Positions 4,406 to 34,862 of a DNA stretch of 39,957 bases are shown one piece after another. The notes below the pieces were generated by a model. That model did not search any database. It had not been told where the DNA came from and worked only from the letters and a program-made list of their open reading frames with translations. Made by a program: the position numbers and the translations under genes. Positions within the stretch are counted from its first letter, which is position 1. Each line of letters opens with the position of its first letter. Source of the DNA: Gemmatimonadota bacterium. GTDB lineage: Bacteria; Latescibacterota; UBA2968; UBA8231. Location: NCBI GenBank assembly GCA_038153405.1, contig JAYOYH010000034.1, positions 9,092-49,048 on the forward strand. The letters are read 5' to 3'.

Positions 4406-4462
4406 GCGTAGAATATGCTCACACTCCGATCCCACTGCGCTGCGCACACCCGTTGTACTCGC

Positions 4463-5728: not shown

Positions 5729-5746
5729 GTATGAGGTCAACGCTGC

Positions 5747-7506: not shown

Positions 7507-7513
7507 CGCCCGC

Positions 7514-11300: not shown

Positions 11301-11328
11301 AGCCGCTTCGGCCGTTGGCCAGCGCTAG
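8308..11328 (+). CDS. ASPIC/UnbV (CRTAC1-like) FG-GAP repeat lipoprotein with C-terminal TPR array
   Basis: Lipobox-like LFSAC. Repeated D-x-D-N-D-G-D-x-D-L-Y-V motifs. ASPIC/UnbV motif SNRDGVGARV...QSDPRLVFGL...WPSG. About 350 aa of TPR-like helical repeats at the C-terminus. Confidence 0.85.
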   Translation: MTCAIRKPSLTFAHCPRRYLTVVGVLFALSQMLFSACSGPQEAPDPPESNATDTQQSHVPDQSGPADTAPPPAARFVDVSAHAGIVEQTVSGSPEQGYIGETMSAGVAVFDADADGYLDLFLVGGNRLSAPDVTTSQRLYINDQDGTFRDQTQSAGLAAVGWGMGAAVGDTDNDGDVDLYVTYLGENKFYLNSGDATFSEVGAKAGVADAAWGASAAFGDLDQDGLLDLYVTNYVKFDFDRPPTGPLKCTYKGLDTFCGPQGMVSSSDRLYRNRGDNAFVDVSEKTPVSDFALPALGVVLADIDNDADLDIYVANDSERNLLFENTGQWTFRERAIEAGLAYSEEGRAQAGMGVDAADFDDDGDIDIVVTNFSDDVNTLYLNDGTGLFADRTYAAGLGSVVRPYLGWSTRFFDFDNDGDLDLYVANGHIYPQLEQLPDGLHYAQKNLLYRNDAGTYTPVDGGPGWQIEKVSRGGAVFDYDNDGDLDVVINNLNDTPDLLRNDTPRANSWIGVQLTGMQSNRDGVGARVVVKTGRTTRTRYVNRGRGFQAQSDPRLVFGLRPDERLDTLSVFWPSGQVHVLTDLPSKTYILIDERGGWRPLSFNRVADARSTEESAVDSTPRAAHPTGSQQQAVDRSNWSATDFARAGQRLYDQGQYDASRKMLESAVRLAPQNPALQVNLAMVFFQGMGDYQRAVDILSETTRSAPNNSDAHTLLGKAYLSLNQIQQAREAFARAARVDSLNWEVHNWLGLAHMRSNDPNGALASFTSAARLAPWQPAPHLHLSRVFAQLGNSAQATVANQNFTRLQPLEESVERFKEKVALFPDSTRAHALLGLAYVEQGRKEAAAQHFATAIRLDSLYAPAYHGFGKLHMLDGRVNEAIRFFERACALDQTFGLAVFDLAQAYFRIGEFQRSIAVYTFALTIDSRHDIINTNLAMAYAMAGNLDRAKQLFNRVIENDGNSIDARDGLAQVLLAEGDKQGALAQWKYILSLDPTHARAASAVGQR

Positions 11329-11756
11329 TCGCCGATTCCTCTCGTTGCGACTTGAACCTGCTGGTCATCCGTCGCCAACACGATCTTTTCCACGCCGACC
11401 CGCTTAGCCACTTCAAGCATTTCCAACATGTGCTTGTGCCGCGTCTGCTGATCGGTTCTCAGTATGAGCGTTAAGCTGCCCGTATCCTGCATTTCGCGCA
11501 GCAGAACGGACTCGAGCTCTCCGCTGGTAACCAGATTTCTATTGATTTCTACGCGCCCGTCGATCGTCACCGTACCCACCAGTTTTTTCTCTTCTATTTG
11601 ACCGGCCTTCGTCGCTTCAGGCAGCTGCACTTGCAGCGTGTAGGGCTGCTTAAAAACCGTTGTTACCATAAAGAAGATAAGCAACAAAAACACGCAATCG
11701 ATCAGCGGAGTTAGGTTGAGTCCTTGTTCTTCTTCGGCCAAGCTTCTCTTTGCCAC
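11325..11756 (-). CDS. exbD: ExbD/TolR family biopolymer transport protein
   Basis: LNLTPLIDCVFLLLIFFMVTT TM segment with the conserved Asp. C-terminal LILRTDQ...LEVAKRVGVEKI. Confidence 0.9.
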   Translation of the reverse strand: MAKRSLAEEEQGLNLTPLIDCVFLLLIFFMVTTVFKQPYTLQVQLPEATKAGQIEEKKLVGTVTIDGRVEINRNLVTSGELESVLLREMQDTGSLTLILRTDQQTRHKHMLEMLEVAKRVGVEKIVLATDDQQVQVATRGIGD

Positions 11757-11765
11757 AGTGCGACC

Positions 11766-12179
11766 TCACTCTTTTTCCTGAACAAAGGCAATACCCTCAA
11801 TGCCTACCTGCCGGGCACTGTCTACCACATAAACGACATCCTTCTGAACGCATTCCCCATCGGCTTGGATAATGATGTTGTCGTTATTGGCTTCTTCGAC
11901 CGCCTGTTTGAGCTTTTCCTGCAGCGCCTCGCGAGCGACGTCCTGTCCGCCGATTTGAATTTTGCCGTACTGATCAATGGCCACATTGATATCTTTTTTC
12001 TTCTCTTCCTCGGCCTGGCTGTCTGCCGGCATATCGACTTCAAGCCCTTTTGTCTGCAGAAAGACCGTCGTCACCATAAAAAAGATGAGCAACAGAAATA
12101 CGCAGTCGATCAAGGGCGTCATATCGGGCTCGCCGTCTTCGGAAAAGCTGCGAGCTCTGCGGATGCGGTGCCTGGCCAT
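11766..12179 (-). CDS. exbD: ExbD/TolR family biopolymer transport protein
   Basis: DMTPLIDCVFLLLIFFMVTT and IIIQADG...VVDSARQVGI. AGGAG RBS before ATG 12179; the ORF-track start at 12245 overlaps exbB. Confidence 0.9.
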   Translation of the reverse strand: MARHRIRRARSFSEDGEPDMTPLIDCVFLLLIFFMVTTVFLQTKGLEVDMPADSQAEEEKKKDINVAIDQYGKIQIGGQDVAREALQEKLKQAVEEANNDNIIIQADGECVQKDVVYVVDSARQVGIEGIAFVQEKE

Positions 12180-12189
12180 ACCGATTCTC

Positions 12190-12924
12190 CTACGCGCTCG
12201 CCTTCCGGCCCGACATGATGAGCGCATTGGCAAAAGCGTGGCCATAGGCCTCTACGCGCTCCAGCGAACGGTCGGCCGTTCGCGCCAAATAGCGATAAAA
12301 GACAATGGACGGTATCGCCACGATAAGGCCCGTCGCCGTGGTAACCAGCGCCTGAGAAATACCGCCAGCAACGACCTTGGGATCTCCGGCACCAGACGCG
12401 GCAATCGATTCAAAAGCGACGATCATACCGGTTATCGTGCCCAACAGGCCAATGAGCGGCGCGATGTTGCCGATGGTATTGATAATGGGTAAGTGCTTGC
12501 CTAGGTAAGTACGCGCCGATTCTTCCGTTTGTATAACGAGTTCATCCTTCATGTCGGCGATCTCTTTTTGCATAACCAGAAACCGGCCCATTTCGCCGCC
12601 GCCGCCGACTTCTCCCAGCTTGATGATCTCTTCGTTTGTCGCCTTGAATTCTTCCTGTTCAATTATGAGCGTGTTGTAGCGCTTTAACAGCGAGGCAAAG
12701 ACGAAGTTGAGTACGCCCTTACCGCTTTCGCAGATCTGCACCGCCGACTGCTGTCCCTCGCGCAGCAGCGCCCCTTCAATCTGCTCCAACTCTTCCTTAG
12801 ACTGTTCGGCGCTTGGCAGGGCATTTAGAACGAGGAGTCGCTCTATGGACAGGCAGACCGATAGCAAGCCGCAAACGATGAGGGGTATCATCAGTGGGCC
12901 ACCGCTTTGAATAATTTCCAACAT
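12190..12924 (-). CDS. exbB: MotA/TolQ/ExbB proton channel family protein
   Basis: GGPLMIPL...SIER, APLIGLLGTITGMIVAF and GGISQALVTTATGLIVAIP motifs. AAGGAG RBS. Confidence 0.92.
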   Translation of the reverse strand: MLEIIQSGGPLMIPLIVCGLLSVCLSIERLLVLNALPSAEQSKEELEQIEGALLREGQQSAVQICESGKGVLNFVFASLLKRYNTLIIEQEEFKATNEEIIKLGEVGGGGEMGRFLVMQKEIADMKDELVIQTEESARTYLGKHLPIINTIGNIAPLIGLLGTITGMIVAFESIAASGAGDPKVVAGGISQALVTTATGLIVAIPSIVFYRYLARTADRSLERVEAYGHAFANALIMSGRKASA

Positions 12925-12970
12925 AGTGATTCACTCCTTGCTTTGGATGGACTGCAGCCGCCCTCACGAT

Positions 12971-13858
12971 TTAGTTTTTCGTCTCGCCTGGAACTAAACG
13001 CGCCCCCAAACTCAACCCCGTCTGTATCGGACCTTCATTGTCAATGACAGCGGCCTTTGACAGGTGTTGACCTATGATTTCCTCTATCCGCACGGCACCG
13101 ACGTGCTGGCCGTTTTGCATAACAGAGAAAATATCTCCCCGCCTGACCAAATCGCCGTTGCCGATATTCAGATATATTTCTACCCCGTCAACGGCTAGCA
13201 CTTTCGCATCTTCTCGCAGCGCGATAGGCGCTCGCCCAAGCAGCGAATCGGCAATAGCCTGACTCAGTTCTCCGAACACGCTCTGCACGTGCTGGCCAAA
13301 GGTTAGGGCAAAGAACTTTTCCGACGCAAACTCTGCAGACAGCAGCTCTCGAAACTCCCGGTCTTGCGCGTTGGGCTTGCCAAACAGACTAAAGTCGATC
13401 GGGCGTTCTACCGAATCTCTCCTTACGTCCAACGTGGACAGGATCGAACCCGACTTTCCATCGATCAGCTCAATCTCGTCTATTTTAACACTGTGCGTAT
13501 ACGATTTATAGCCAAACGTATTGGGGTCGCCAGCCACGGTGCGGCGAACGCCAAACTTGCTGACGCGGCCGCGTATGAGCACATCCACATCGAGCTGCGC
13601 CGCGATCCCTTGCCACTGCTTGGCCATCTCGGCCAGGTCTCCCGTCGTGCGGGTATTTATTTCCGACGCCACGACGGCGATGCCCGGTATCTCGTCCAAG
13701 TGGGTGCCCAACAGTCTTGGCACGTCGCTAGCCAATTTCCACGCGCCCTGAAAGCCAGCCTGGTCATCAAAGGGCAGCAAAGCGACGCGAACGGGCGGCA
13801 AGCTGGCAAAGCTCGGCCACGCGAAAAACAGTATGCCCGCAAAGAGAAACACCGTCAC
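12971..13858 (-). CDS. Exported protein with CsgG/TolB-N-like alpha/beta domain and FlgT C-terminal-like domain
   Basis: GTG at 13858 gives a signal peptide (MTVFLFAGILFFAWPSFA). Motifs RVALLPFDD, LDVDVLIRGRV and LIDGKSG. C-terminal AKVLAVDGVEIYLNIGNGDLVRRGDIFSV resembles FlgT_C. Confidence 0.55.
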   Translation of the reverse strand: MTVFLFAGILFFAWPSFASLPPVRVALLPFDDQAGFQGAWKLASDVPRLLGTHLDEIPGIAVVASEINTRTTGDLAEMAKQWQGIAAQLDVDVLIRGRVSKFGVRRTVAGDPNTFGYKSYTHSVKIDEIELIDGKSGSILSTLDVRRDSVERPIDFSLFGKPNAQDREFRELLSAEFASEKFFALTFGQHVQSVFGELSQAIADSLLGRAPIALREDAKVLAVDGVEIYLNIGNGDLVRRGDIFSVMQNGQHVGAVRIEEIIGQHLSKAAVIDNEGPIQTGLSLGARLVPGETKN

Positions 13859-13859
13859 G

Positions 13860-14651
13860 CTAGTCCGTTTCCGCTGAGAGCAGCTCGACCGTGTGCTCGA
13901 ATGAAAGGGCCACATCCAGCGACTCAAGCGGCTGTCCCGACGCATCGAACTTGAATATGAAATCGCGCAGGACCATCTCTACGGACTCTACTTTGTCCTG
14001 CAGCGGCCTAAAGGCAATCAGGCCGCTGTAGCTCTCGCCTTTAAATACGAGCTGGTCTTCCAAGTAGGCCGAGCTGCGCACGTTGCCCATGCGCAGGTCG
14101 AAGCGATAGAATTCATTGCCGCTTTGTCCGCGCAGACCGCGATAGTACTGCTCGAAGCTCTCGTAGGGCGCAGATGCGGGAATGCCAAAGGCGTACAGCT
14201 TCTCTCCCTGATCCGTCAGCAAGTAGGACTTTATGGGATCCAAGAGCACTTTCGCGTAAATGTCGTTGACGACGGTCACGCGAAACACGGTGAAGCGCTT
14301 AGGGCGGTATCCCTTTAATGGATCGATCCAATCTCCATACGTATAGGGATTAGTCGAAAAGCGCCCCCTTGACGAATCTTGCGGAAAGAGCGCGTTCAGC
14401 TGGTCGTCGCTCAAGGGCTCCACCTTTATGCGCAGTCCCTCCATGGCAAACGTTATGGAGGCAGCGTCATCCGATGTATAGCTGCCGTTTTGCCGGGCTG
14501 CCAGTATGAGCTCGGACGACGTGTCGAGCCCCTTCTCTGCAGCATACAAATCGCTGTGGTAAATGGATAGCGATGGGTTAAATACGCTCTGACATCCGCT
14601 GAACCATACTACGCATAACACGCACAGGTATTTCATACCCAATTCTCTCAT
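13860..14651 (-). CDS. Hypothetical lipoprotein
   Basis: MKYLCVLCVVWFSG-C lipobox (alternative start 14636). ATGA-coupled to the upstream gene. Beta-rich C-terminal part. Confidence 0.75.
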   Translation of the reverse strand: MRELGMKYLCVLCVVWFSGCQSVFNPSLSIYHSDLYAAEKGLDTSSELILAARQNGSYTSDDAASITFAMEGLRIKVEPLSDDQLNALFPQDSSRGRFSTNPYTYGDWIDPLKGYRPKRFTVFRVTVVNDIYAKVLLDPIKSYLLTDQGEKLYAFGIPASAPYESFEQYYRGLRGQSGNEFYRFDLRMGNVRSSAYLEDQLVFKGESYSGLIAFRPLQDKVESVEMVLRDFIFKFDASGQPLESLDVALSFEHTVELLSAETD

Positions 14652-15874
14652 TCGCTTCGTTGACTGAAGAAATCGATTTGCTGTTGGGCAATAGAGCCCT
14701 GCTGCGTCAAGGCGAACACAACGGCATTAATGCCAAAGCGCAGTTGGGGTTCGTTGCCAAAGTTGCGCGCCCACGTATGGACATAACCTTTGTCGCAGTA
14801 AATAGCGACCAACCGATCGCCCAAGAACACGCCTTCGAGGTTGTACGACGGCTGGGCTATTACGACATTTTCCAACCCGCGCTGGCCGCCGCTGTCGGGC
14901 ACTTCCAGCTCCGAGCCAACAGGAGGGCCGTCAAAGTCGTAAAACGTATGGTAAATCGGGTGGTTGTTGGGAATGACTTGCAGCACGCCCTGCGACCTCA
15001 GCGCATCGCGAAAAACCTTGCGCAACGACGCTTCTGCTTGACTATACTCGGCAGTGGGATTGGCATTGTCGGCGAAAATAAACCCCCCTCGACGCAGGTA
15101 TTCACCGAGATTTTCGATCTCGCGCTCGGTCAGCTCGAATGCCTCCTGCGCCGTCAAGTAAACAAACGGCGTCCGAAAGAGCTCTTGAGAATCGATAAAG
15201 AGATGGGCGTCGACCTGTGCCGATATGCCCGTCTGTTTGTTGAGCGCATCAACTAGGTTTGGAATGGCCTTGGCGGCGCTGTCAAAGGTCGGCTCGAGAT
15301 CGTTGGCCCAGGCCGTACCCAGATAAATAAATCCCTTTACGCTGCGGCGATCGGATGGATCCTGTATGATCAGCCCCTTGTATTTACCCGTGTCCAGCGC
15401 CTTCAAATCGATCAATTCCTCGCGCATGGCTATGCGCTTTTCCGGCTCTTTAGTACCTGCTATAACCGCGGCCGACAAATCGACATCGCCGGCGTTCAGG
15501 TCGAGTTTTACATCGGGGCTGACGTTGTAGTCGAACGTAGCTATTCTGCCAATCGAGGATATACCAGCAACGCTTTGCGCCGCGGGCATCTGCACGCGAG
15601 GTGTCAGAGATGTCATTTTCTTTGTCATCGCGCGCGGCTGTATGCGCTGTTTTTTCAGAACAAACGCTTTGGAAGAGCGCGGCTTGCGGATAATTAGCCG
15701 GGTAATCGCCGGCGGTGGCGCCTCTTTCTTATCCTGGGAGAGAATCATATACAGCGTCAGCCCTCCTCCCAGTGCCAGCGCACACAGCAATCCCCAAACG
15801 GTATAGCGAGACGTATCCCGAAGTAGGTTTTTTAGACTAATGGTGTCGCTGGGCGAACTAAAGCGGGTGTTCAT
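14648..15874 (-). CDS. Membrane-anchored DUF4159-like domain protein
   Basis: N-terminal TM (VWGLLCALALGGGLTLYMIL), then a K/R/P-rich stalk. C-terminal PFVYLT...LTEREIENLGEYLRRGGFIFADN...IPNNHPIYHTFYDF...LEG...RLVAIY...RFGINAVVFALT is typical of DUF4159. Confidence 0.75.
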   Translation of the reverse strand: MNTRFSSPSDTISLKNLLRDTSRYTVWGLLCALALGGGLTLYMILSQDKKEAPPPAITRLIIRKPRSSKAFVLKKQRIQPRAMTKKMTSLTPRVQMPAAQSVAGISSIGRIATFDYNVSPDVKLDLNAGDVDLSAAVIAGTKEPEKRIAMREELIDLKALDTGKYKGLIIQDPSDRRSVKGFIYLGTAWANDLEPTFDSAAKAIPNLVDALNKQTGISAQVDAHLFIDSQELFRTPFVYLTAQEAFELTEREIENLGEYLRRGGFIFADNANPTAEYSQAEASLRKVFRDALRSQGVLQVIPNNHPIYHTFYDFDGPPVGSELEVPDSGGQRGLENVVIAQPSYNLEGVFLGDRLVAIYCDKGYVHTWARNFGNEPQLRFGINAVVFALTQQGSIAQQQIDFFSQRSE

Positions 15875-15891
15875 CTATGCACACTTTTCTA

Positions 15892-18800
15892 TCAGAGCCG
15901 TGAGGCCATGATCCAATCGCGATGAGATCGGGCAAACTGATACGCATCTCGCGTTGCCTTCTCTGCCTCATACAATTCAATAACCTGGTCGTAGACGCGA
16001 ACGGCATCGTTCCACTTGCCGATGCCCTCCAAGCACACGCCCATATTGCTGAGGGCGCCCAAAGCACTCTCTGTGCCGTCGTACTCTTCTATGATTTCTT
16101 CAAATACATCAATCGCTTCTTCGTAAAATTCCAGCCGATTGCCCACTTCTGCCGAATCCATTAGGGCCAGCCCCTTTTCATAGGCTTCGTAGGCAATGGC
16201 CTCCGTGAGCTCTTTCTTTAACTTGGGCACCTGCTGGGCAACGGTCGATCGTCGGTAGCGCTGTTCCACGATGGAATAGGCTTCGAGCGCCTGTTTGTAC
16301 TGCCCGGCGTTGTAGGCGTAGTCGCCAAACGTAAACTGCGCAGACGGCGCAAATTCGCTGTCGGGATAGCGCTCCAGCAGCAGGCCAAACTGTTCCATCG
16401 CCTCTTCTTGGCGTTCCAACTCGATCAGACACCACGCCATATTGTAGAGGGCATCGTCGGCGTTGTCGCTATCGCGATACGTCGTCAGCAGCACGCCGTA
16501 TGCATCGATCGCCTCTTGAAAACGACCCAGCTGATAGTTTGACTCGCCCAGACCAAAGTACAGCGCGTCAGCCGACTCGTGGTTGGGGTGATCGGCCACC
16601 ATTTGTTCAAACAGCGCATGGGCCGCTGCAAACTCGCGCAGGCTGTAGTGCGTATTGGCTAGATAGTAGGTCTTCAAAAAACGCTGCTCGGATGTCAGCT
16701 CTTCTGTCCGAACTTCCATTAGCTGGCTCTTTGCCGCCTCCAGATCTCCGTCTGAAAAGGCTATGGTTGCCAGACTGAGCTTGGCGTTCACGGCAAAGCG
16801 ACCCGATGGAAATTGCTGCACGTACTGTTGCAATGCATTGACGCCTTCGGCACTATCAGACGTGCGGACCAAAATTTCTCCGAGTATAAACAGCGCCTTT
16901 TCCCGTAGGCCATACGGCCTTTCCGCCGATGCCTGGTCTTCAAACGCAAGGGCGAGAATGCGCTTGGCCATCTGGGCCGTTTCCTCCCATCGCCCCTCGG
17001 CGTAATAGGAGTCCATAATGCGGCTTAGCAGCTCGGCTCGCTCCTGCGGCTTGGCCTCGCCATTCGACATGCTCTCCAACAGCTCAACCGCATCGGTCGC
17101 GCGGTTTTCCTTGAGCAGAAGCAAAATGAGCGTTTCGCGGGCATAGCGAATTTTTTCCACGTCTGTCACGTTCTCAATAACCCAGCTCAGATCGCCTTCG
17201 GCCAGCGCTAAACGGTCGTCCGAAAGGGCGGCGTTGCCCCTGGCCAGTCGCGACGCAACCAAGAGCTCGCCCTCCGGCTCCGATTCGATTAGGTCGCCAT
17301 ACGCCTGTATGGCTTGTGCCCAATGACCCATTGCCGAGTGTGCCTGTCCAATTAGGTATAAAAAGCTGTATACCTGTTGGTCATCCGCACCGCTCATACC
17401 CTCTGTCAGGATCTCTAGTGCCTGCTCATACTCGGTCTGTTCCAGCAGCTGGTGCCCCGCGCCTAGGCGAGAGCTCGTATAGTGACGCGAATCGCTCCCA
17501 ACGCGCAGAAACTCGCCAATGGAATCCTCGTATTGGCCCATGCTCTGCAGTGCGAGCGCCCTACGCATATGCGCATCGTCCAACCCTGCCGCGTCGGGGA
17601 AGAGAACGAGAACCTGATTGGCTAGAGAGTCTGAGAGGCGATGCTCGCCGCGCTGAAAGCTCAGCTCGGACAGCTGCAAGAGAGCCCTCTGGGCGTACGA
17701 CGCGCCGGCCTCGTCTATCAAAGACCGGTAGGCGCGCTCGGCGGAACGCTCGTTGTCGGCTCCGCCCACTGTTTGCAGAGCGTACGCCTTGTTAAACAGC
17801 GACTCCCACTTATACGGCGTGTTCTGCTCCTGTAGAATGGTGTCGTAATAGGCGACTGCCCGCATCAGAAGCGGCTCCGCTCCCACCTTGTCGCCCCCTT
17901 CGATGCGCGACTGAGCCTGCTGCTGGTAGCTATTGCCCATTCGGTAGTGTACTCGATCGAGGGGAAATCCCACACTGCTGGCCATATCGCTGTAGCCCTG
18001 TATAAACACTCGAAACTCCGACAGTGCGGCTTCGTACTGCTTTTGAGAAAAGAGCTTCTCTGCCAGCGCAAACTGAATACGCGCCCGCAAAGAGCGATCT
18101 GAAGAAATATCAATGGCCTCGCGGTAGGTGCGCACGGAACCGTCTAAATCGCCGCGCTGCTCGTACATATCGGCTAGGCGTAGGTAGGCCTCCTCAACGA
18201 GCGTCCGCTCGCTTGCAAAGCGCTTTATGACCCTGCGAAACGATGCCACGCCCGCTTCGTACTCGCCGATCTTGCCATAGCATGTAGCCGTGCGAATTTC
18301 CGCTTTTGCCGCCAGTTCCAACGCCGTCTCATCGACTAAACCGGCTAGCTTCTCGCGCTGCATAGCGGCCAGCTGATCCTCTGACAGTTCGTCTATGCGC
18401 TGTCGCTGGACAAGGCGCTGATAGTACTCTACGGCCGAGCCGCAGTCGTCCATGGCCAAATAGCACTCACCTATTTGGAACAGGCTGCGATCCGTGCGAT
18501 AACCGTTGGGGTAGTTTTCAACCAAGTCGACAAAGGCCTCTATCGAGGCGTTGTAATCGCCCATTTCGTAGTGGGCCCAACCCAAGTTGTAGAAGCCGGG
18601 CAGAGCATAGTCGTCAGCGCCGTACTCGTCGACCAAACGCTGCGACGCGCTAACGACGTCCTCGTATTTCTTTGCTTCAAAATGCGTCTCTATAAGCCGG
18701 CCGTGTGCCAGTCCTTTGAGCTCTTTGCTCGAGGCAGAGCGAATGACCTTCTCAAAAGAGTCGACGGACTGGGCGTATGAACTGTCGGCGAGCTGCAGGT

Positions 18801-19128
18801 ACTCGCCACTTCGACTCTGGTCGTTCTGCGAGAAACTGCGATAGTCTGAAAACCGCTTGTTGTAGGCATTGCCCATTTGGTACAGAGCAGCCTCTTGAAC
18901 GGGATAGTGATCTTCGCCAACCACGACCTGTATGGTTTCTGCATCCAGAACGCTACTCCGCACGACGGACACCTCGCGATAACGATCGATGGCCTGATCG
19001 TATGCACCTTCCGCGTAAAAGCGCTGCGCCTCTGTGAAAGAGGCTATCAGCTCCTGCTCCGTTGGCGCGCGAAATGAAAGCACGGCGCCCGCTGCCGTAA
19101 TCAGCCCGACGAGAAGTGCTAAACTCAT
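15892..19128 (-). CDS. Giant tetratricopeptide repeat protein (CpoB/BamD-like TPRs), N-terminal signal or anchor
   Basis: 1078 aa of repeated A..Y.LG..Y..G.Y..A...F..L...YP units. Hydrophobic N-terminus MSLALLVGLITAAGAVLSF. Confidence 0.85.
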   Translation of the reverse strand: MSLALLVGLITAAGAVLSFRAPTEQELIASFTEAQRFYAEGAYDQAIDRYREVSVVRSSVLDAETIQVVVGEDHYPVQEAALYQMGNAYNKRFSDYRSFSQNDQSRSGEYLQLADSSYAQSVDSFEKVIRSASSKELKGLAHGRLIETHFEAKKYEDVVSASQRLVDEYGADDYALPGFYNLGWAHYEMGDYNASIEAFVDLVENYPNGYRTDRSLFQIGECYLAMDDCGSAVEYYQRLVQRQRIDELSEDQLAAMQREKLAGLVDETALELAAKAEIRTATCYGKIGEYEAGVASFRRVIKRFASERTLVEEAYLRLADMYEQRGDLDGSVRTYREAIDISSDRSLRARIQFALAEKLFSQKQYEAALSEFRVFIQGYSDMASSVGFPLDRVHYRMGNSYQQQAQSRIEGGDKVGAEPLLMRAVAYYDTILQEQNTPYKWESLFNKAYALQTVGGADNERSAERAYRSLIDEAGASYAQRALLQLSELSFQRGEHRLSDSLANQVLVLFPDAAGLDDAHMRRALALQSMGQYEDSIGEFLRVGSDSRHYTSSRLGAGHQLLEQTEYEQALEILTEGMSGADDQQVYSFLYLIGQAHSAMGHWAQAIQAYGDLIESEPEGELLVASRLARGNAALSDDRLALAEGDLSWVIENVTDVEKIRYARETLILLLLKENRATDAVELLESMSNGEAKPQERAELLSRIMDSYYAEGRWEETAQMAKRILALAFEDQASAERPYGLREKALFILGEILVRTSDSAEGVNALQQYVQQFPSGRFAVNAKLSLATIAFSDGDLEAAKSQLMEVRTEELTSEQRFLKTYYLANTHYSLREFAAAHALFEQMVADHPNHESADALYFGLGESNYQLGRFQEAIDAYGVLLTTYRDSDNADDALYNMAWCLIELERQEEAMEQFGLLLERYPDSEFAPSAQFTFGDYAYNAGQYKQALEAYSIVEQRYRRSTVAQQVPKLKKELTEAIAYEAYEKGLALMDSAEVGNRLEFYEEAIDVFEEIIEEYDGTESALGALSNMGVCLEGIGKWNDAVRVYDQVIELYEAEKATRDAYQFARSHRDWIMASRL

Positions 19129-19131
19129 GGC

Positions 19132-22100: not shown

Positions 22101-22296
22101 GCCCCAGAAAAGCGCTGCTGCCCAGCACCCTTTGCGCCCCAATCTCCTCCGTCGCCTCCGTGCTGCCGCTCGCCGCGGGTTGAGCTACCCCATCACCAAC
22201 CAGCAGCACGAGTGCACTTGCACAGCGCAAAAACCACCGGACGGACAGCCCGATTTCTCTATTTGGCGAATTCGTTACCATATTAACGACTGTCAA
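19132..22296 (-). CDS. Large exported protein, putative outer-membrane beta-barrel (paralog 3 of 3)
   Basis: Signal peptide ending ...VGDGVAQ. Shares IRTxxTPLTL/NGLRxD, the DNDD..D..PD...GVFPGLD loop and amphipathic C-terminal strands with the next two ORFs. Exact start uncertain. Confidence 0.7.
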   Translation of the reverse strand: MTVVNMVTNSPNREIGLSVRWFLRCASALVLLVGDGVAQPAASGSTEATEEIGAQRVLGSSAFLGRFTDEYTNWGDVDYPRQIGITSNLRNYYSLMGDPLVYGSESIRWVERRGLGVQRFAGSGGSQLSESLAHGQSGSSYARLFNYVIVGTDGTDDWQSRFIYANEIRTRLTPLTLKMSNLNGLRIDVGSKKNSFSALFSRLHAPIYSSGRENDQSIKAKAMLWGAHYERHVGFMNFGATFVNAHQYEPMMEQKALSTKGVPGAMQNAPAILALRISDDSPTDGKGGVVIHSVSVRVNGVVRPEVEPFIVRLNKRGDDRQSYMAGRLRSGERKPLPPLANDYQSINRGSSYNTYDPYINYAAFDVDVYYRGYEFPFWVDHLYYRDYKLYGPEHVINQSRVENEGESPVVVDEEFAHELVEESGDFGFATKADLPQAFDGEEYAMLYVDLEPLGEFIESVEVDLSLANDYHVELSEIDISGTAPSPTRSNYRERYRYATYFRTVARAEGNPQDGTPKLVRVKSGVPTGLSLYSLNAHGVLHGFEINAEFSRSRSFFQYASGVPQPRVSLDELSINALQRETMPGGRSSINDNAFYLTVKKDAERWGFGAEVFSIGPHYTTEFRSYIGRDERDTSGNPIAYNNTMIHRLIEDNDDDDRYPDSWYNNAPSGLQGQSDVDGVFPGLDEDKDGIPDTNRNFNAVPDYQEPFLMYTADPPVYDFGEDANHNDVIDARENDIVADLPYDIDTRGFHTYLSIWPLRGMSVTLGLKDTRQIAGPAPDRSLYSRIGYARQIPSLGNFLASASIERIEDGIEDELSVYSDRVLTIAEQFELDFAGLQRNIKVAPFLEGPREDPMLFLNSTRGRIYIDTKWGGASSAWKIRNKIKYETNNQHEGKVFDGRLQEGRRLNRWTMVNAFDYQWQLSERVSLFSGIKMRYRREWNSADEGDITRETHTIPIAKLQYRLTEQTRFQLGVQGLGFALPYRVNDSADSDNTFQQFDAVAMVSNNSKYFGYVVSTNAGISHRNKEYKNSEIGLAGDEEFVAAFVNVIVGFEAE

Positions 22297-25091: not shown

Positions 25092-25094
25092 TTC

Positions 25095-27767
25095 TTACCC
25101 TATGAGCACGCGAAAAAAGTATTCTACAAAACCGACGCTGGGACGGGCCGTATTCGTGTATTCCTGCTTTGTCCGGTACAGGCCCATCAGTATGGACAGG
25201 TCGTATCCCAGATAGTTGCTATTGTTCTGACCAAAGATCGTGTAGGTCGACCGATCAAAGTTCTGGTCTGTAGCCGCTAGGTCACGCGACATTTCCGCAA
25301 AGAACGGCAGCCCCTGCAGGCCGGTGCGGATCTTGGTCTTTGGACCGATTTGCCAATCGGCGCGGAGAATGGGCATGAGCCAGTGGCGCTTTCGATAGGG
25401 CTCAGACCGCTCCGGGTACTTCACGTATTGGAAGATGTGCTTGAATTGGGGGTACACGCTGAGTCGACCACGAGCGTAGGTCCAGCCGACCTTGTTGACC
25501 AGCGTCGCCTGCAGCGTGGAGCCCGGCTTTGCCATCAGCGGGTCTGCCAAAATATCGCCCCGCAAATCAATGTGGTTAACCGAGGCAATATGGCGCGTAA
25601 CAATGCCCTGCGCCGGCTGCAGGTTGGCTTCCACGTAGGTCAGGTTGTCTAAGCTGTTCCTGTTTTGTAGGGCATCGGGCCGCAGCGTCGAGGGGTTTGT
25701 GTTGTAAATCGTATTGCCAATTGAGTCTTTGACCCACCGAATTCGATGGTGCATTTGGATGGTGCCCAACTGGCCGATTTCGCGGCCATAGCTGCCCTCT
25801 GTGTAAGTGGTTTCGTTCTTATCTCCTATCGCCTTGCGCCGCACTCGGTACGTTCCCAGGCGAACCTGCACGCCGGAAGACCAGCTGTGGCGCGCAAAGG
25901 CGTGTAGCCCTTTGTGGTCTATCGGATAGGCGTAATCCGGCAGGTTGTCGTTTTCGCGAAAATCGGCCACGCCGTTGTTGTTGAAGTCGTCTCCATAGAC
26001 GAGCTCTGGCGGCTCGGCGTAATAGGATATGAACGGCTGATACGCATCCGTGCCGCCCGCGCGGTCGACGTCAAAGTCAAGCACGCCGTCGGCATCGGGA
26101 TCTAAGCCGGGGTAGACGCCGTTACCCTGGGCTAGAGAGCGCTGATACGGTATGAGCGGATCTTCGTGCTCTATTCGGTCGGGCCACTGGTCTAGGTCGT
26201 CGTTGTCCTCGACCATATTGAACGGCGCATAGAGTCTGCCGCTGAGCGTAGGACCACGGCTCGACCGTTCAAAAATGGAGAAGTCCGTTCGATAGTCGTG
26301 CGGCACGTCAAAGTATTCGAGCCCCAGCAAAGCCCGGTCGCCGATCTCGCGCGACACGTTGACATACAGCGCCGAAGCCTGGCGCTGGTGTTGCTGACCG
26401 CCCAGCGCGGGCGCCTGGAAAAAGCGCGTGCTGCGCGTGTACTCCCCGCTGGCTGAAAACCCGGCGATCGTCGATTCAAAATTTACACCAACAATTGAAA
26501 TGCCCGTTGGAAATCCGTAGCTGAAGCGTATGCGACGCGTATTGCTAGAAGACGTTGGATTGCCGATCGCCCGGCTCGCGTTATACCAGTCGTAGTAGAA
26601 GTCGTCGTCGCCCGATGCCAGCGTAGGGACGCGCATCGCACCGACGACATCTATGCTGTAGTCGTTGGCGACGACCGCTTCAAACTGAATGTTTGCGGTG
26701 GTATCGGGCAGATCGTACTCGTAAATGATGAGATCTGTTCCGCTGACGGCTTCGGGACTTGCAATCGTGGGCGCCTGGACCAGTGGCGTGGTGACCTCCG
26801 AGATAAGCGCCTTGAAAAACGGCTGGTTGCTGGCCTCTATCACGCCGCGAATCCACGATCTGTTTTTCCTCAGATAGTTTATCTCATTCGGGCTCAGCAG
26901 CACGGTGCTGGAAACATCTTTGGTAACGGGCAGCTGCTGCAACAGATTGTCCACCCGGCTCACTCGAACCGGTTCGACCTGGCGCCCCCCCACGCTAAGG
27001 GTCAACTCGTGCAGGCGGGCCCCGTTTGCGTCTTCTTCCGGCGAGTCGTCGGATATAAACACGTACACTTTGCGCAGGCCGTTCTCCATGACGCGGGGAA
27101 TAACACCCTTTAGGTTATTTACCCGTCCGCTCGACTCGGCATCGTAGCGATGCGTATTTACGTAGCTGCTTCCAATTTTCAGAATGCTACCAATCTGACT
27201 CTCCCAATGTCCTGCAAAAATAGATGTGCCAAAAATGCGCCGATCTTCAAAGCTCTGATCGATGTTCGTATTGGAGGGAACGAAAATGGGATCCGTTAGC
27301 TGCGAGGTAAGCAGGCTAAAGCGATTCTTCTTTGAGGCTCCATCCCATCGAATGCCGTTAAACCTGGGCAGATTGAGCGTCATCGGTGTGAAAAACGTGC
27401 GGATGTGGTCGCCAATGATCAGGCGCGTGGACCAAGGTCCAAACCCCTCGTTGGATATAATCAGCTTGTCAAAAAAGCGATCGTAGCGCGCGTTGCGCGA
27501 TTCGTAGCTGCCTGGTATGCCAAGCTGGTCGCGGCGAATTTCGCTGTAGCGTATGACGTCTACGCCGTCGATAAGCAAGTCGCCAAAGTAGTCAAAGCGC
27601 CGATTCTCCTCGTCGTAGTCGTAGTCCCTATAGCCGGCCGTTCCGTAATTCTCGAAGACCTCATTCGACCAAAGATCGCGGAAGTCGCGCGAGAGGAACT
27701 GTGCATCGACCGAAAACGGAGTGCAGAGCACCCCTAGGACGAACAGGACAAACGTCTGTAATCGCAT
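25095..27767 (-). CDS. Large exported protein, putative outer-membrane beta-barrel (paralog 1 of 3)
   Basis: Signal peptide MRLQTFVLFVLGVLCTPFSVDAQ (ATG 27767; alternative TTG 27788). Motifs LIIGDHIRTFFTPMTL, NGIRWD, EDNDDLDQWPD, NGVYPGLDPDADG and PILRADW. Confidence 0.7.
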   Translation of the reverse strand: MRLQTFVLFVLGVLCTPFSVDAQFLSRDFRDLWSNEVFENYGTAGYRDYDYDEENRRFDYFGDLLIDGVDVIRYSEIRRDQLGIPGSYESRNARYDRFFDKLIISNEGFGPWSTRLIIGDHIRTFFTPMTLNLPRFNGIRWDGASKKNRFSLLTSQLTDPIFVPSNTNIDQSFEDRRIFGTSIFAGHWESQIGSILKIGSSYVNTHRYDAESSGRVNNLKGVIPRVMENGLRKVYVFISDDSPEEDANGARLHELTLSVGGRQVEPVRVSRVDNLLQQLPVTKDVSSTVLLSPNEINYLRKNRSWIRGVIEASNQPFFKALISEVTTPLVQAPTIASPEAVSGTDLIIYEYDLPDTTANIQFEAVVANDYSIDVVGAMRVPTLASGDDDFYYDWYNASRAIGNPTSSSNTRRIRFSYGFPTGISIVGVNFESTIAGFSASGEYTRSTRFFQAPALGGQQHQRQASALYVNVSREIGDRALLGLEYFDVPHDYRTDFSIFERSSRGPTLSGRLYAPFNMVEDNDDLDQWPDRIEHEDPLIPYQRSLAQGNGVYPGLDPDADGVLDFDVDRAGGTDAYQPFISYYAEPPELVYGDDFNNNGVADFRENDNLPDYAYPIDHKGLHAFARHSWSSGVQVRLGTYRVRRKAIGDKNETTYTEGSYGREIGQLGTIQMHHRIRWVKDSIGNTIYNTNPSTLRPDALQNRNSLDNLTYVEANLQPAQGIVTRHIASVNHIDLRGDILADPLMAKPGSTLQATLVNKVGWTYARGRLSVYPQFKHIFQYVKYPERSEPYRKRHWLMPILRADWQIGPKTKIRTGLQGLPFFAEMSRDLAATDQNFDRSTYTIFGQNNSNYLGYDLSILMGLYRTKQEYTNTARPSVGFVEYFFRVLIG

Positions 27768-27794
27768 TGACCTGTGGTAGTTATTCAATATCGT

Positions 27795-29957
27795 CTACCA
27801 AGCTACGCCGATTGACCCTACCGAAGCGCGTTCGGTCGGATCTAGCTCAACGACCAGTTTGTATACGTAAACGCCGGGAGCGACTAGGTGGCCCGCATCA
27901 TCACGCCCGTCCCAACGCACCAGAGAAGAGGAATCCCAGCCGCCGTAGCGGCCCGCGTTTATCCCCTCGTATGAAATTGTGCGCACGCGCTGCCCCGACA
28001 TGGTATATACTTCCAACCGAAGGGTGGCATCTTCCATCCGACCTAGTGTGAAGCGCAGCGACGCGCTGTCGTTAATGCCGTCCCCATTGGGCGTGACGAT
28101 CGCAGGACTAACCTCGACGTCCTGAAGAATGGGAATTTCGAAATCGTTGGTCGTAACGGTTAGCGCAAACGACTCGCCACTCGCCTCGTCTACGCCACTG
28201 CGCTCGTCCGTTTTAAGCGGGTTGGACGACTGGGGAGAAAAGAGAAACGACGAAAAGCGATGCTTTGCCGAAAGCAAGCGGCTGGTAAATGGAATCGTCA
28301 GTTCCGTTGTCTCAGCGATGGGCGGTGAAAAGTGCACGACGAGTGAATCGTCGGTTGCGTAGGAACGCTCCCGGTCAACGCTGGCCGCGCCGGTAGAGGT
28401 GATGGCATTCCAGTCGACGGTGGCCGGCCACTGCGTCAATACGGCAACCCGCTCGACGCCCTCGCCCTCAGCGCCTTCCATTTCGATTTGCAGCCGATAG
28501 GTAAAGTCGACGTCCTGGCCAATTGGCACCTGCAGCGGAGCAATCCAAGACTGCGCGCCCCGGGCCGGAATAATCTCTGCGTCGTATTCGATATGTAGGC
28601 TGTCCAAGCGCGGCGAAACCAGCACGTCGCGCGAGTCCATCAGGACCTGAAACTGAAGGTGGCTGCGCGGTTCGGCCACGTCTAGCCCCGACGCGCTGGC
28701 CGCCTGCCACGGGGACCACGCTTCCCAAAGGGCGCCGTCGTTGCCCGTGCGAAAGCGCAGCTTCATATCCGTTTGGTCGGGCACTTCGCCGTAGGCACGC
28801 ACGGCCCGAAAATTTATTGGTGCGCCATCGGCCAGATTCATAGGGGGCGACGTATAGAGACCGCTCGCCCCCAAGCCATCGCCGTAGACTTCCATTTCGC
28901 CTACGCGGGGCGACGCGTCGCGCGTTGAAAAATCCGTCGCCACTAGGCGAACGTGCCGCGCGACAATCGTCGGGAATTCGACGGTTGTCTCCTGAAAATT
29001 GACGATGTTATTGGCGGACCCGACCTCAATGAAGTCGACGCCGTCCTTGCTCACAAATATGCTATAGCCCCGCAGCGAGACGTCTTCAAACGATCCGCGA
29101 GAAGGGGGCTCCGTCAGGACGCGCACTTTGCTTATGGGCACCAACCGGCCCAAATCTGTCTGCGCACTTTGCAGCAGCGCCGATGCGCCCCGTCGAAAGT
29201 TGAAGGAGGTGTTTATGTCGCCGTCTACCAGGTTTGGATCGGCAGAATAGGAGCCCAGCGCGAGGTTAACGCCCTTGAACGAGCGCAGTTGCAAACCGCC
29301 CCGTCCGCCGTCGGCGCCTCCTGGATACCCAGCCAAACTCCTGACGTCCGTGTCCAAGCCTAGCACTTCGGCAAACGCGCCACCCGACAGAGAGCCTTCC
29401 TGCACGGGCGTCCAGCTCACTGCTTGGCCGTCTTCCTCGTGCCGGTCTAAACGATTGGACCTCAGCTCCATCCAATCGGCACCCGGTTCATTTTGCAGGG
29501 GAGAGTCTGTCCAAAACCAGGGAAACGTCCGATCGCTGGGCGAAGCGACGACCAGCGCCTCTTCCGTTTCAACGGCAAGAAAATATCCGTACGAATTGGG
29601 AAAGCCTTCGTCTTCCACTACGAGAGCTATATTGTTTGTATTTCGAGAAAACGAGACCTCGTAGGAAGCCAGTCCAGCACCGCCGTCGCCCTCGCCGACT
29701 AATTCACCGTCCAAATAGAGCGCGTACTGACCCCCGACCAACACGTGTATGCGACCGTCTATCGCCTGCTCAAAATCAATAAATCCTAGATAGTTCGTCG
29801 TCGTCGGCCAGGCGGTAACCACCTGCTGTTCTGCCCGTGCGTTCATCACCCATACAGCGGCAAGTACAAAGGCGAATCGAACCCAGTGCAACGGCAGTCC
29901 TCCTATCAGTAATAATAAGCCACCGGCGTACGGATACACCGGTGGCTTATCATGCAA
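27795..29957 (-). CDS. Secreted protein with discoidin/F5-8-like beta-sandwich and gliding-motility-associated (type B-like)/FlgD-Ig C-terminal domain
   Basis: Discoidin-like NLALG...NLVDGD...TDLGRLVPISKVRV...YSIFVSKDG...ARHVRL...GEMEVYG. C-terminal SPAIVTPNGDGIND...WDGRDDAG..VAPGVYVY. Start codon uncertain. Confidence 0.75.
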   Translation of the reverse strand: MHDKPPVYPYAGGLLLLIGGLPLHWVRFAFVLAAVWVMNARAEQQVVTAWPTTTNYLGFIDFEQAIDGRIHVLVGGQYALYLDGELVGEGDGGAGLASYEVSFSRNTNNIALVVEDEGFPNSYGYFLAVETEEALVVASPSDRTFPWFWTDSPLQNEPGADWMELRSNRLDRHEEDGQAVSWTPVQEGSLSGGAFAEVLGLDTDVRSLAGYPGGADGGRGGLQLRSFKGVNLALGSYSADPNLVDGDINTSFNFRRGASALLQSAQTDLGRLVPISKVRVLTEPPSRGSFEDVSLRGYSIFVSKDGVDFIEVGSANNIVNFQETTVEFPTIVARHVRLVATDFSTRDASPRVGEMEVYGDGLGASGLYTSPPMNLADGAPINFRAVRAYGEVPDQTDMKLRFRTGNDGALWEAWSPWQAASASGLDVAEPRSHLQFQVLMDSRDVLVSPRLDSLHIEYDAEIIPARGAQSWIAPLQVPIGQDVDFTYRLQIEMEGAEGEGVERVAVLTQWPATVDWNAITSTGAASVDRERSYATDDSLVVHFSPPIAETTELTIPFTSRLLSAKHRFSSFLFSPQSSNPLKTDERSGVDEASGESFALTVTTNDFEIPILQDVEVSPAIVTPNGDGINDSASLRFTLGRMEDATLRLEVYTMSGQRVRTISYEGINAGRYGGWDSSSLVRWDGRDDAGHLVAPGVYVYKLVVELDPTERASVGSIGVAW

Positions 29958-29970
29958 ACAAGTAGCAGAG

Positions 29971-31902
29971 CTACTTCAACAACGTGACTTTCCTCGTGAC
30001 GTTCAGGTTCGGCGCCTGGACGCGATACATATACATACCGCTTCCGACCTGAGCGCCGCTGTCGTCACGACCATCCCAAGAAATGCGGAACTCACCCGCA
30101 TTCATGCGATCGTCGAGCAGGGTGCGCACTTTCTGGCCTTGAGTGTTGTAGATCTCAACCAGAATGGGAGCATCCCAGGGCAGCGAGAAATTGATCGACG
30201 TTTCGGGGTTGAACGGGTTGGGAGCCGCATCGCTGATCTCGTACGCCGTCGGCAACGCTGCGCCTTCCAATTCGTAAACCGCCGTCGCGGGCTCGCCCAA
30301 TAGGGCGCGCTTCTGGTCGTAGGGCATGTGCACGATCGGATAGTGCGACAGTATGGCCAACGCACCTTCCTCTGGCACCGGAACAAAGTCGTTCGCCGCT
30401 GCCGCATCGCCAAAACCGCCGATGCTCATATACACGCCGTCCCAATCACCGTCCATTTCATCGACGATGATGTTGTACTGCGGCCAGCTGGTGGGAATGT
30501 TCTTGGGCTCAAAGTGGAACAGGCCCGAACCGTCCTCGCCCAACACGAAACCGTTCTGCGTCGTATTCGAACCGGCTTCGATGTTGGTAACCCAACCCCA
30601 CTTAGTAGAGTACAGCGAGTACTTAAACGCCGGTGCTTCCGTATGGCCGTATTCGAGACCTCCGAACGTGCCTTCGGAAAAAGTGCGCGAGTCGCCATAT
30701 CCGTCGCCGTTGCGGTTCATATATACGACGTTGCCGTCGTAGTCCAAGCGGACCGTCAGCGAAGTGTGGTGACCCGATAGGGTTATACCGGCTGGGTCGG
30801 GCTCGCCGTTGTAAAAGCGGGCCATCGTTCCGGGACCACCTGAACGATCGCTTCCGTTGTTATCGTAGAGGAACATGTCCGTCAGATCCCACTCGCCCAA
30901 GAGCGAACCGCTCTCTATCGAGTACGCGGCAATCTTGCTCACCGTGCCCGCAACGCCCGCCGTGGCATATACGACGGTCTTCTGGGGATTGGTGGTCGAG
31001 GCATACTGACGACCCGGAAGGACGTCTTGGAGATTCAACACGCCAAACTCGGCGCCGGCATCTTCGCCCCAATCTTCATGCATCGTGATCTGACGCGTAT
31101 CCCAATTGTACTGGTAGCGGTAGAGCCAGCCAACGTTGCCGCCGCGGTTGTTGCCAATCCACTCCGTTAGGCTGCCGTTGAGCGGCGTGGCGCTCAGCAT
31201 ACCCGTTGGGCACCCTTCGCGGTCACCGCAGGCATCTACGACGGACTGGTTGTCGACCAAGTCGTATGCATCAATACCAGCGGCAATCCAGTCGTTTTCC
31301 ATGTTGGCAACTTCGCCCGTGAAGTTCACAAACTCGCCGCGCGAAGGATTGATATAGATGGTCTGGCCACTGCCAAACTGACGGGCCGCTGCGCCCACGA
31401 TATGAGGCGTGGCCTCGTCATCAAACGCGGCGAGAAACATCTGGTACGATCCGCTCTGGACGATGTTGCCGTCCATATCGCGGCCGTTCCATACGATGGA
31501 GTTCTCGCCTTCGTTGAAGCGCTGGCCGGCGGACTTATAGACCAATACATCGGTGCCATTAACTACGTGCCAGCCCGGATTGCCGTGCTCTGGATCCTGG
31601 TAAGGCCCCGGCCCTTCTCCGCGAATGGTGAACGGCGCCTTGTAACCGTCGGTATAGATAATGAGCCAGACCGTTGCACCGCTTCCATTCAGAGTAAACG
31701 GGATCTCCAGATCCGCTCCGCCAAACGTGTAATTGGTCATATCGCCGAGACCGGATATCTCTAGCGTTACGGGCTTGCCTCCGCTCGTCATATCCGGAAG
31801 TTGGAGGTCCGGGTTTCCTATGTGCAGGAACTGCGCGTTAACGGAAACCGCGGCAGATAAGCCCATTGCAAACACGAGGGAAAGTTTGGACAGTATTCTC
31901 AT
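29971..31902 (-). CDS. Secreted protein with N-proximal FlgD-Ig-like domain and C-terminal T9SS type A-like/FlgD-Ig domain
   Basis: Signal peptide MRILSKLSLVFAMGLSAAVSVNAQ from ATG 31902. Internal WNGRDMDGNIVQSGSY. C-terminal APNPFNPET...IYNTQGQKVRTL...WDGRDDSG..VGSGMY...TRKVTLLK. Confidence 0.8.
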   Translation of the reverse strand: MRILSKLSLVFAMGLSAAVSVNAQFLHIGNPDLQLPDMTSGGKPVTLEISGLGDMTNYTFGGADLEIPFTLNGSGATVWLIIYTDGYKAPFTIRGEGPGPYQDPEHGNPGWHVVNGTDVLVYKSAGQRFNEGENSIVWNGRDMDGNIVQSGSYQMFLAAFDDEATPHIVGAAARQFGSGQTIYINPSRGEFVNFTGEVANMENDWIAAGIDAYDLVDNQSVVDACGDREGCPTGMLSATPLNGSLTEWIGNNRGGNVGWLYRYQYNWDTRQITMHEDWGEDAGAEFGVLNLQDVLPGRQYASTTNPQKTVVYATAGVAGTVSKIAAYSIESGSLLGEWDLTDMFLYDNNGSDRSGGPGTMARFYNGEPDPAGITLSGHHTSLTVRLDYDGNVVYMNRNGDGYGDSRTFSEGTFGGLEYGHTEAPAFKYSLYSTKWGWVTNIEAGSNTTQNGFVLGEDGSGLFHFEPKNIPTSWPQYNIIVDEMDGDWDGVYMSIGGFGDAAAANDFVPVPEEGALAILSHYPIVHMPYDQKRALLGEPATAVYELEGAALPTAYEISDAAPNPFNPETSINFSLPWDAPILVEIYNTQGQKVRTLLDDRMNAGEFRISWDGRDDSGAQVGSGMYMYRVQAPNLNVTRKVTLLK

Positions 31903-34836: not shown

Positions 34837-34862
34837 ATCTGCATCCGGCACGGAGACGCCAC

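Follow-up and report, generated by a model that had tools for sequence, protein, structure and literature searches.

An ExbB/ExbD-linked gene cluster with giant predicted outer-membrane barrels in Latescibacterota: a possible machine for capture and import of large solutes

The DNA analysed here, called the window, is a stretch of 39,957 nucleotides from an uncultured estuarine bacterium of Latescibacterota type (assembly GCA_038153405.1, contig JAYOYH010000034.1, positions 9,092 to 49,048). It carries a cluster of twelve tightly packed open reading frames (ORFs), all on the minus strand between positions 11325 and 31902 (Table 1). In order, they encode two proteins with C-terminal domains (CTDs) like the type A and type B tags used in type IX secretion systems (T9SS), three paralogous giant proteins (g03–g05, named BigA, BigB and BigC), a tetratricopeptide repeat (TPR) protein, a transmembrane (TM) protein with a stalk and a DUF4159 head, a lipoprotein, an exported protein, one ExbB and two ExbD subunits. 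The raw intergenic gaps from g01 to g12 are 13, 6, 3, −4, 3, 17, −4, −86, 46, −56 and 9 bp. Three starts were reset from orthologue lengths: g01 to 31902 (643-aa orthologues), g09 to 13858 and g11 to 12179. This removed both long overlaps (g09 gap 1 bp, g11 gap 10 bp) and left all gaps between −4 and 46 bp. The preliminary description of twelve co-oriented genes with overlaps or gaps below 50 bp was therefore correct.

Pfam and NCBIfam recognised FlgD_ig/CTD-like C-termini in g01 and g02, an F5/8 domain in g02, TPRs, DUF4159, MotA_ExbB and ExbD twice, which agrees with the domain labels given before. The label CsgG/FlgT-like for g09 fits only loosely. The protein itself has no Pfam or NCBIfam match; among 11 aligned relatives two match CsgG and two match FlgT_M (E about 1e-3), and the family profile matches FlgT (PDB 3w1e) at E 0.005. 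Families of TonB_C, TonB-dependent receptors (TBDRs), SusD, TolA, TolB and Pal had no match among the twelve proteins, in agreement with the preliminary description.

Table 1. Genes of the cluster and inserted domains of BigB, with positions in the window.
Feature	Position	Strand	Description
g01	29971..31902	−	643-aa exported protein; two FlgD_ig-like stretches; type-A-like CTD
g02	27795..29957	−	up to 720 aa, start uncertain; F5/8 (CBM32-like) lectin domain, conserved pre-CTD domain of about 200 aa, type-B-like CTD
g03 BigA	25095..27788	−	897-aa barrel paralogue, slot A; fold predicted by homology to the modelled BigB
g04 BigB	22293..25091	−	932-aa predicted outer-membrane beta-barrel, about 24 strands; AlphaFold2 and fold searches
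BigB insert 1	23889..24455	−	residues 213–401; Ig-like beta-sandwich, probably outward-facing
BigB insert 2	23202..23522	−	residues 524–630; Asp-rich, likely Ca-binding
g05 BigC	19132..22296	−	1054-aa barrel paralogue, slot C; fold predicted by homology to BigB
g06	15892..19128	−	1078-aa TPR protein, hydrophobic segment at the N-terminus
g07	14648..15874	−	TM anchor, basic/Pro stalk and DUF4159 head; candidate force transducer; subtype without TM histidine
g08	13860..14651	−	263-aa predicted lipoprotein, Cys20 invariant
g09	12971..13858	−	exported protein of about 295 aa, weakly FlgT/CsgG-like
g10	12190..12924	−	ExbB/TolQ-family subunit; 28 inserted aa compared with two genomic paralogues
g11	11766..12179	−	ExbD/TolR-family subunit 1, 137 aa, TM Asp kept
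g12	11325..11756	−	ExbD/TolR-family subunit 2, 143 aa, TM Asp kept

The cluster is conserved. Eleven regions were fetched around the best BigB matches. Five, spread over four genera in one and the same family, keep the gene order of the window. Three are complete; in the other two, the stretch or contig breaks off at the first gene. Two of the complete regions carry a pair of additional small genes following the TPR gene, and one of these regions has g02 in two ORFs. The other six regions are rearranged or partial paralogous versions with about 30–65% identity. Among 45 loci found with BigC, some of which may be from the same genomes, all twelve genes are visible in three, and another two run up to a contig end. 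The arrangement is not due to chance, because the same order recurs in other genomes, and the synteny proposed as a check in the preliminary description is borne out. The barrel repeatedly adjoins the DUF4159 gene in contigs of Ca. Latescibacter anaerobius, and barrel, TPR and DUF4159 genes remain linked through the rearrangements. The match labels of relatives and the named loci point to Latescibacterota, some deposited as Gemmatimonadetes.

In other genera, two extra conserved genes lie just upstream of the DUF4159 gene (L002:34-988, L004:91-1073, L005:7129-8146, L017:15764-16743) and are missing from the window cluster. They encode a membrane-type protein of about 190 aa and a lipoprotein-like protein of about 130 aa; the pair at L002 has no NCBIfam match.

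The phylum survey comprised 151 genomes, one draw for all families. The barrel family occurs in 94 of them and in none of the 56 genomes of four families. Anchored DUF4159 (E ≤ 1e-40) was detected in 93/94 barrel-positive and 0/57 barrel-negative genomes, the pre-CTD domain of g02 (E < 1e-19) in 93/94 and 1/57, respectively; 28 further barrel-negative genomes have one weak pre-CTD match each. SprA is present in 143 genomes, including 55 of the 56 in the four barrel-less families. Therefore, barrel, anchored DUF4159 and type B cargo occur as a group whose distribution differs from that of the T9SS translocon; the co-occurrence follows family lines and represents few independent events, not 151. 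These results support a conserved gene set for the envelope that is linked to the proton motive force, has barrel-like subunits and is apparently undescribed. The literature search by title and abstract start found no description of the cluster and no matching characterised system, in line with the preliminary description; subscription papers and supplements were outside its scope, and the supplements of PMC12204202 could list DUF4159-headed transducers.

The giant proteins are predicted outer-membrane barrels. An AlphaFold2 model of BigB, run on an alignment of 84 sequences, had a pLDDT of 81 and a pTM of 0.81. The DSSP string of the model has 23 long strands between residues 101 and 928, and an amphipathic-looking strand at about 68–78 is the probable first strand, giving about 24 in all. 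A conserved segment of about 40 residues would remain at the N-terminus ahead of this strand. The short turns are consistently on one side of the model and the long loops on the opposite side. The C-terminus of such barrels is periplasmic. From this parity, read from the DSSP string without a view of the coordinates, the beta-sandwich (213–401) and the Asp-rich domain (about 474–630) are likely placed on the outer face.

Fold searches with BigB returned outer-membrane barrels. The best Foldseek matches were SlpA (E 1e-9, TM-score 0.19, root-mean-square deviation (rmsd) above 7), MtrB and LptD. The best VIA match was the FimD usher (Z 14.2, rmsd 8.3 over 330 residues), which ties with CymA, Occ channels and BamA and is generic. 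In Pfam, g03–g05 have no family over cut-off and no match to the TBDR barrel and plug families PF00593 and PF07715; BigB weakly matches SlpA_C (24.8 bits, cut-off 35, E 9e-6), and the SLH domain has no match in the barrels. A search of the barrel profile against PDB sequences gave nothing significant (one match, E 0.11). The ESM Atlas returned unnamed clusters and one DUF6029 entry at 0.90, treated as a lead only. BigB is predicted to be an outer-membrane barrel without a close solved relative, unlike TBDRs, and the earlier view of the large proteins as barrels other than ordinary TBDRs gains support.

The first insert, folded alone (residues 222–404), had a pLDDT of 90. It had no Foldseek match at E ≤ 0.001 and a best Z of 5.5 among 48,161 chains. 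It looks like a generic immunoglobulin (Ig)-like sandwich and says nothing for or against sugar binding. The Asp-rich second insert is the best-conserved part of the family, with 37 of 107 columns conserved to at least 80% in 146 sequences. It presumably binds calcium, as we take its DxDxDG-type motifs to be of the Ca-binding type.

BigA, BigB and BigC are mutual paralogues (25–32% identity, E to 1e-73) and belong to a family of 23 members in the genome, on which BLAST and hidden Markov model (HMM) searches agree. Five are at two motor loci; 18 are in motor-less cassettes elsewhere. The earlier picture of a single cluster needs correction: the cluster is one motor-bearing copy within a family that mostly lacks a motor nearby. 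In a midpoint-rooted FastTree of 64 sequences, from which a partial copy on contig C60 was left out, the slot A sequences of different genera fall into a single clade, as do those of slot B (support 1.0 in both cases); slot C has a support of 0.69. Motor-linked barrels are separate from the 17 full-length cassette copies. A recent tandem triplication was rejected, with the slot A and B clades spanning genera. The three slots appear old, and their products may assemble together. In some relatives, a first look yields as many as 88 candidates, and a library search with the barrel found 996 representatives at E ≤ 0.001.

The 23 barrels compare with four ExbB proteins in the genome. Six TBDR genes (PF00593) are encoded, none at this locus. 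The one canonical TonB is on contig C52 with its own ExbB-ExbD-ExbD. A third motor locus (C85:8437-14676) has a PorV-like barrel, a TPR protein, ExbB, one ExbD and a His-bearing DUF4159 protein; its contig has no giant barrel.

The CTD-tagged proteins of the genome were split into two classes by HMM score alone. For g01, FlgD_ig is over cut-off and TIGR04183 scores 32 bits (cut-off 23); its middle region has no match in Pfam or PDB. For g02, CHU_C (24.2) and FlgD_ig (25.1) are both below 27, and many type-B-like paralogues pass CHU_C. The genome has 49 type-A-like proteins without the pre-CTD domain (two further internal matches were left out) and 52 type-B-like proteins, all 52 with it. Only the second class is linked to barrels. 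Type-B-like genes lie within 10 kb of a barrel in 34/52 cases, 16 of them adjacent, and directly upstream of 15 of the 23 barrels; type-A-like genes are within 10 kb in 3/49 cases and never adjacent (background 95/2229 genes). Thus, of the two CTD proteins tied to the barrels in the preliminary description, the type-B-like one stands and the type-A-like one does not. F5/8-type matches (E ≤ 0.001) occur in 13 of 33 scanned type-B-like proteins, and no enzyme family was found among the 33. The profile of the family matches CBM32 modules and fucose-binding lectins in the PDB (E to 7.5e-12).

The genome, which is 93% complete, has its own T9SS genes. SprA, PorV and PorU-like genes were found (C29:30661-37059 and C91:167-5065), and these parts of the canonical T9SS considered in the preliminary description are present. 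PorP_SprF, GldL, GldM and GldN were not found in the genome, absences of little weight as the PorP, GldN and GldL controls were silent and the GldM control gave one match below cut-off. PorV-like small barrels are present in some of the barrel and motor loci. Because the genome has SprA, PorV and PorU, the giant barrels need not be an export channel. A role as general motor of the T9SS was rejected on the survey counts of SprA in barrel-less families, and the cluster is probably not such a motor. A gene that we take to be fliG-like (C29:42116-43150) is near sprA without evident flagellar neighbours.

In the motor subunits, the TM Asp is present in both ExbD proteins and the Thr motifs are kept in ExbB, as seen in the alignment. 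The roles of these residues in the proton channel are described in PMC12204202. In two other copies, the TM Asp of ExbD is replaced, by Asn in the ExbD1 of contig C7 (C7:87615-88061) and by Tyr in one ExbD2 of another genome (L007:3893-4309). The candidate transducer g07 has one hydrophobic segment (about 29–45), a linker of about 140 aa and DUF4159 at 195–389; the head matches only DUF4159 in Pfam and also matches PDB 4i66. The TPR protein g06 matches PorW/SprE at E 1e-27, with 97 bits against a cut-off of 250, and its YbgF/CpoB match falls on the TPR repeats. For the lipoprotein g08, the ESM Atlas gave unnamed clusters only. Longer orthologues in sister clusters carry an AgmX/PglI domain over cut-off (5/5 tested). 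This is the TonB-C-like domain of GltG/GltJ, and it suggests TonB-box-like pulling in the barrel family. The parallel to the Myxococcus Agl-Glt apparatus, drawn in the preliminary description, gains a link that had not been seen.

The cluster lacks a defining feature of each of these systems: Ton, Tol-Pal, Agl-Glt, vWA-headed transducers, PorP/SprF, SlpA and ushers. It probably works like Ton-SusC/D. Common to both are an ExbB/ExbD-family motor, a stalked arm with a single TM segment, many barrels per motor and a surface binding partner for each. The differences concern the parts. The head is DUF4159 instead of TonB_C, with the canonical TonB at its separate locus. TBDRs have a 22-strand barrel with an N-terminal plug, whereas the cluster barrels have about 24 strands and two inserted domains and match no TBDR or plug family. 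The partner is CTD-tagged and lectin-like, unlike SusD. Force transducers with a vWA head, encoded beside TPR-tolQ-tolR-tolR genes, were proposed with unknown function (PMC12204202). They share the order TM-linker-globular head and, as neighbours, a TPR gene together with one ExbB-like gene and two ExbD-like genes that differ from each other. In the cluster, the head is DUF4159 instead of vWA, and the SHLS histidine is absent in the window subtype. Giant barrels and CTD proteins do not appear in the section of PMC12204202 on transducers, and its main text has no occurrence of 'Latescibacter' or 'DUF'.

Tol-Pal differs by TolA, the TolB propeller and Pal, all unmatched among the twelve proteins. 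Agl-Glt/Nfs is closer in its parts list of one TolQ-like and two TolR-like subunits, a large TPR protein, a lipoprotein and three barrels (PMC3169522), and in the AgmX/PglI domain. In the cluster family, this domain sits on the lipoprotein of sister clusters and is missing in the window copy. The cluster has no GltG of the FHA-TM-TonB_C type (gliding_GltG unmatched; PF16697, used as FHA-domain stand-in, was not found in the genome), and its barrels are four times larger without a match to a Glt model. The T9SS type B/PorP-SprF route shares the split into two CTD-like classes, with genetic linkage to a cognate barrel for type B only, and SprA, PorV and PorU. It differs by barrel size (about 900–1050 aa in g03–g05, without a PorP_SprF (PF11751) match), by GldLM in place of an ExbBD motor and by the extra conserved pre-CTD domain in the cluster family. 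Deinococcus SlpA (PDB 8ae1, 7zgx, 8agd) is also a large barrel with inserted domains and the best Foldseek match; the low TM-score, the high rmsd and the missing SLH match set it apart, as do the tens of motor-linked paralogues of the cluster barrels. Chaperone-usher systems differ, as no usher, chaperone or pilin family of Pfam matched the twelve proteins.

The cluster can tentatively be read as a proton-powered machine for the capture and import of sugars or other large solutes, SusC/D-like in principle and built of unrelated parts. The type-B-tagged lectin-like protein would be exported by the SprA-type T9SS of the genome. It would dock on the conserved outer domains of the neighbouring barrel and catch the substrate there, as SusD and surface glycan-binding proteins do. 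The ExbB/ExbD/ExbD motor would pull the DUF4159 arm, which replaces TonB. The TPR protein and the lipoprotein may pass the pull to the conserved N-terminal barrel segment and so gate the pore. For the 18 barrels whose cassettes have no motor, one of the few motor loci would supply it, in the fashion of TBDRs. Gene linkage points to the twelve products as one machine, and each step from linkage to a physical machine is inferred.

Three lines of evidence make import the best supported of the three functions considered in the preliminary description, with motility the least supported: many barrels share few motors, the barrels are paired with lectin-like proteins, and genes for sugar-type solute-binding proteins (SBPs) are enriched near barrels while TBDR genes are not. 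SBP genes are within 15 kb of a barrel in 4/12 cases against 8.6% of the genome (p 0.015), TBDR genes in 0/6.

Several observations weigh against import. The SBP enrichment is modest and counts the window's own SBP. Genes for FG-GAP/UnbV-ASPIC proteins cluster far more strongly at barrel loci (14/23 within 15 kb). The operon encodes no catabolic enzyme recognisable by Pfam. A plug domain is not evident in BigB, where residues 27–100 are of low confidence (pLDDT 37–65 per block). The best-conserved region of the barrel is a probable outer domain, which suits docking or a structural role as well as it suits transport. The AgmX/PglI domain is absent from g08 itself, and few independent events stand behind the co-occurrence counts. 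The arm also lacks a motor-binding residue. TonB and TolA bind their motor through a TM histidine (SHLS motif), which is absent in the g07 subtype (0/7 rows); among 26 aligned DUF4159 anchors it is missing in 13 and present in 13. Of 17 measurable rows (two more were unmeasurable), 14 have an ExbB that exceeds the two paralogues with His-bearing anchors by 28 residues, an insertion that might conceivably compensate for the loss of the histidine.

A more far-reaching version of the import reading is doubtful, if conceivable. In it, the cluster would stand for an ExbBD-type machine in a class of its own, next to Ton, Tol-Pal, Agl-Glt and the vWA transducers. The DUF4159 arm, in this subtype acting without histidine through a remodelled ExbB, would drive a hetero-oligomer of three usher-sized barrels that holds the T9SS-exported lectins and pulls entire oligo- or polysaccharides through the outer membrane. 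With tens of copies per genome, it would be the main uptake route for much of the phylum.

The main rival, on the whole unlikely, keeps the pairing of barrel and tagged protein and dispenses with solute import. The barrels would be cognate shuttles or anchors of type-B-tagged surface proteins, an oversized stand-in for PorP/SprF, and the motor would free these proteins from SprA or move and position them in the style of Agl-Glt/Nfs. The upstream position of type-B-like genes fits well, and in Bacteroidota type B substrates are often linked to and dependent on cognate PorP/SprF barrels (PMC12618676, PMC9143113). The genome offers SprA, PorV and PorU with PorP_SprF and GldL/M/N not found, although these absences count for little, and the AgmX/PglI domain ties the sister clusters to GltG/GltJ. 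A barrel of about 24 strands is far bigger than an anchor of the PorP kind requires. Moreover, PorV-like small barrels are already present in some of these loci, and some lineages have several barrel-DUF4159 pairs with a type-B-like gene undetected in the fetched loci.

Dedicated export is improbable. The barrels would be usher-sized channels for type-B-tagged proteins, energised by ExbBD-DUF4159-TPR and parallel to SprA for type A cargo. The usher as top VIA match would suit this role, yet that match is generic; the similarity of g06 to PorW/SprE also fits, yet it is far under the cut-off. Strong matches of the pre-CTD domain, present in all type-B-like proteins, track the barrels, and the outer face of the barrel is probably capped by two domains. 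SprA in nearly all genomes of the survey argues against it, as does a barrel number that reaches tens in a genome and would be uncommon among secretion channels.

More improbable still is a division of functions, with the barrels as passive SlpA-like structural porins and the motor at work elsewhere in the envelope, for instance powering the SprA translocon as a substitute for GldLM. Foldseek ranks SlpA first and SlpA_C is a weak sequence match, GldL/M/N were not found, the DUF4159 anchor has no histidine, and exbBD is divergent from the barrels in some loci. The distant SlpA fold, the unmatched SLH domain, the persisting linkage of barrel, TPR and DUF4159 genes and the independence of SprA from the set in barrel-less families contradict this division. 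Least probable is gliding-type surface motility with the type-B-tagged protein as adhesin: the parts list and the AgmX/PglI domain of sister lipoproteins parallel Agl-Glt, but the cluster has no GltG/GltJ-like protein, GltC and GltE models are missing among the TPR matches, Glt barrels have only 209–275 aa and the core complex is unlikely to drive motility alone (PMC3169522), and at least 20 barrels per genome fit substrate diversity better.

Where transport across the outer membrane is powered, one normally thinks of TonB-dependent transporters; this genome has six TBDRs and 23 barrels of an unnamed family. If import is true, the uptake of large substrates by a widespread uncultured phylum would be accounted for, DUF4159 would have a function as an effector of the motor, and a type IX-style export tag would be connected with an ExbBD motor in a group other than Bacteroidota. 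A display function would still leave a new family of large barrels and a testable set of interactions.

Sequencing runs that contain at least half of the stretch (11 entries) are metagenomes from estuary, ballast-water, marine and seawater samples. In two RNA runs of one study, 18 and 15 contigs fall on the 20-kb cluster, the pieces over g01 reaching 1071 bases, and 3 and 2 contigs fall on a neighbouring 7.9-kb stretch; such contigs can neither rank genes nor prove co-transcription and were not counted as evidence. A promoter and terminator scan of the cluster was at chance level.

The flanks (window 1842-8284 and 34503-38726) encode, according to Pfam, a type-A-tagged sugar-dehydrogenase-like protein, a sugar-type ABC transporter, a CBM9-like protein and a GH123-like protein; these genes are not fixed neighbours in the synteny maps. 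The FG-GAP/UnbV-ASPIC copy of the window (8308-11328) is a TPR fusion, and its gene is oriented convergently towards the operon end. A third class of C-terminal tail (TAVExxSWGxIK-like) was seen in 16 genes for proteins of 160–330 aa, two with CBM9-like matches (examples at C7:72465-73442, C4:130047-130979, C79:4858-5727 and C10:1555-2496). For nine of the 16, a giant barrel is found no more than 8 kb away.

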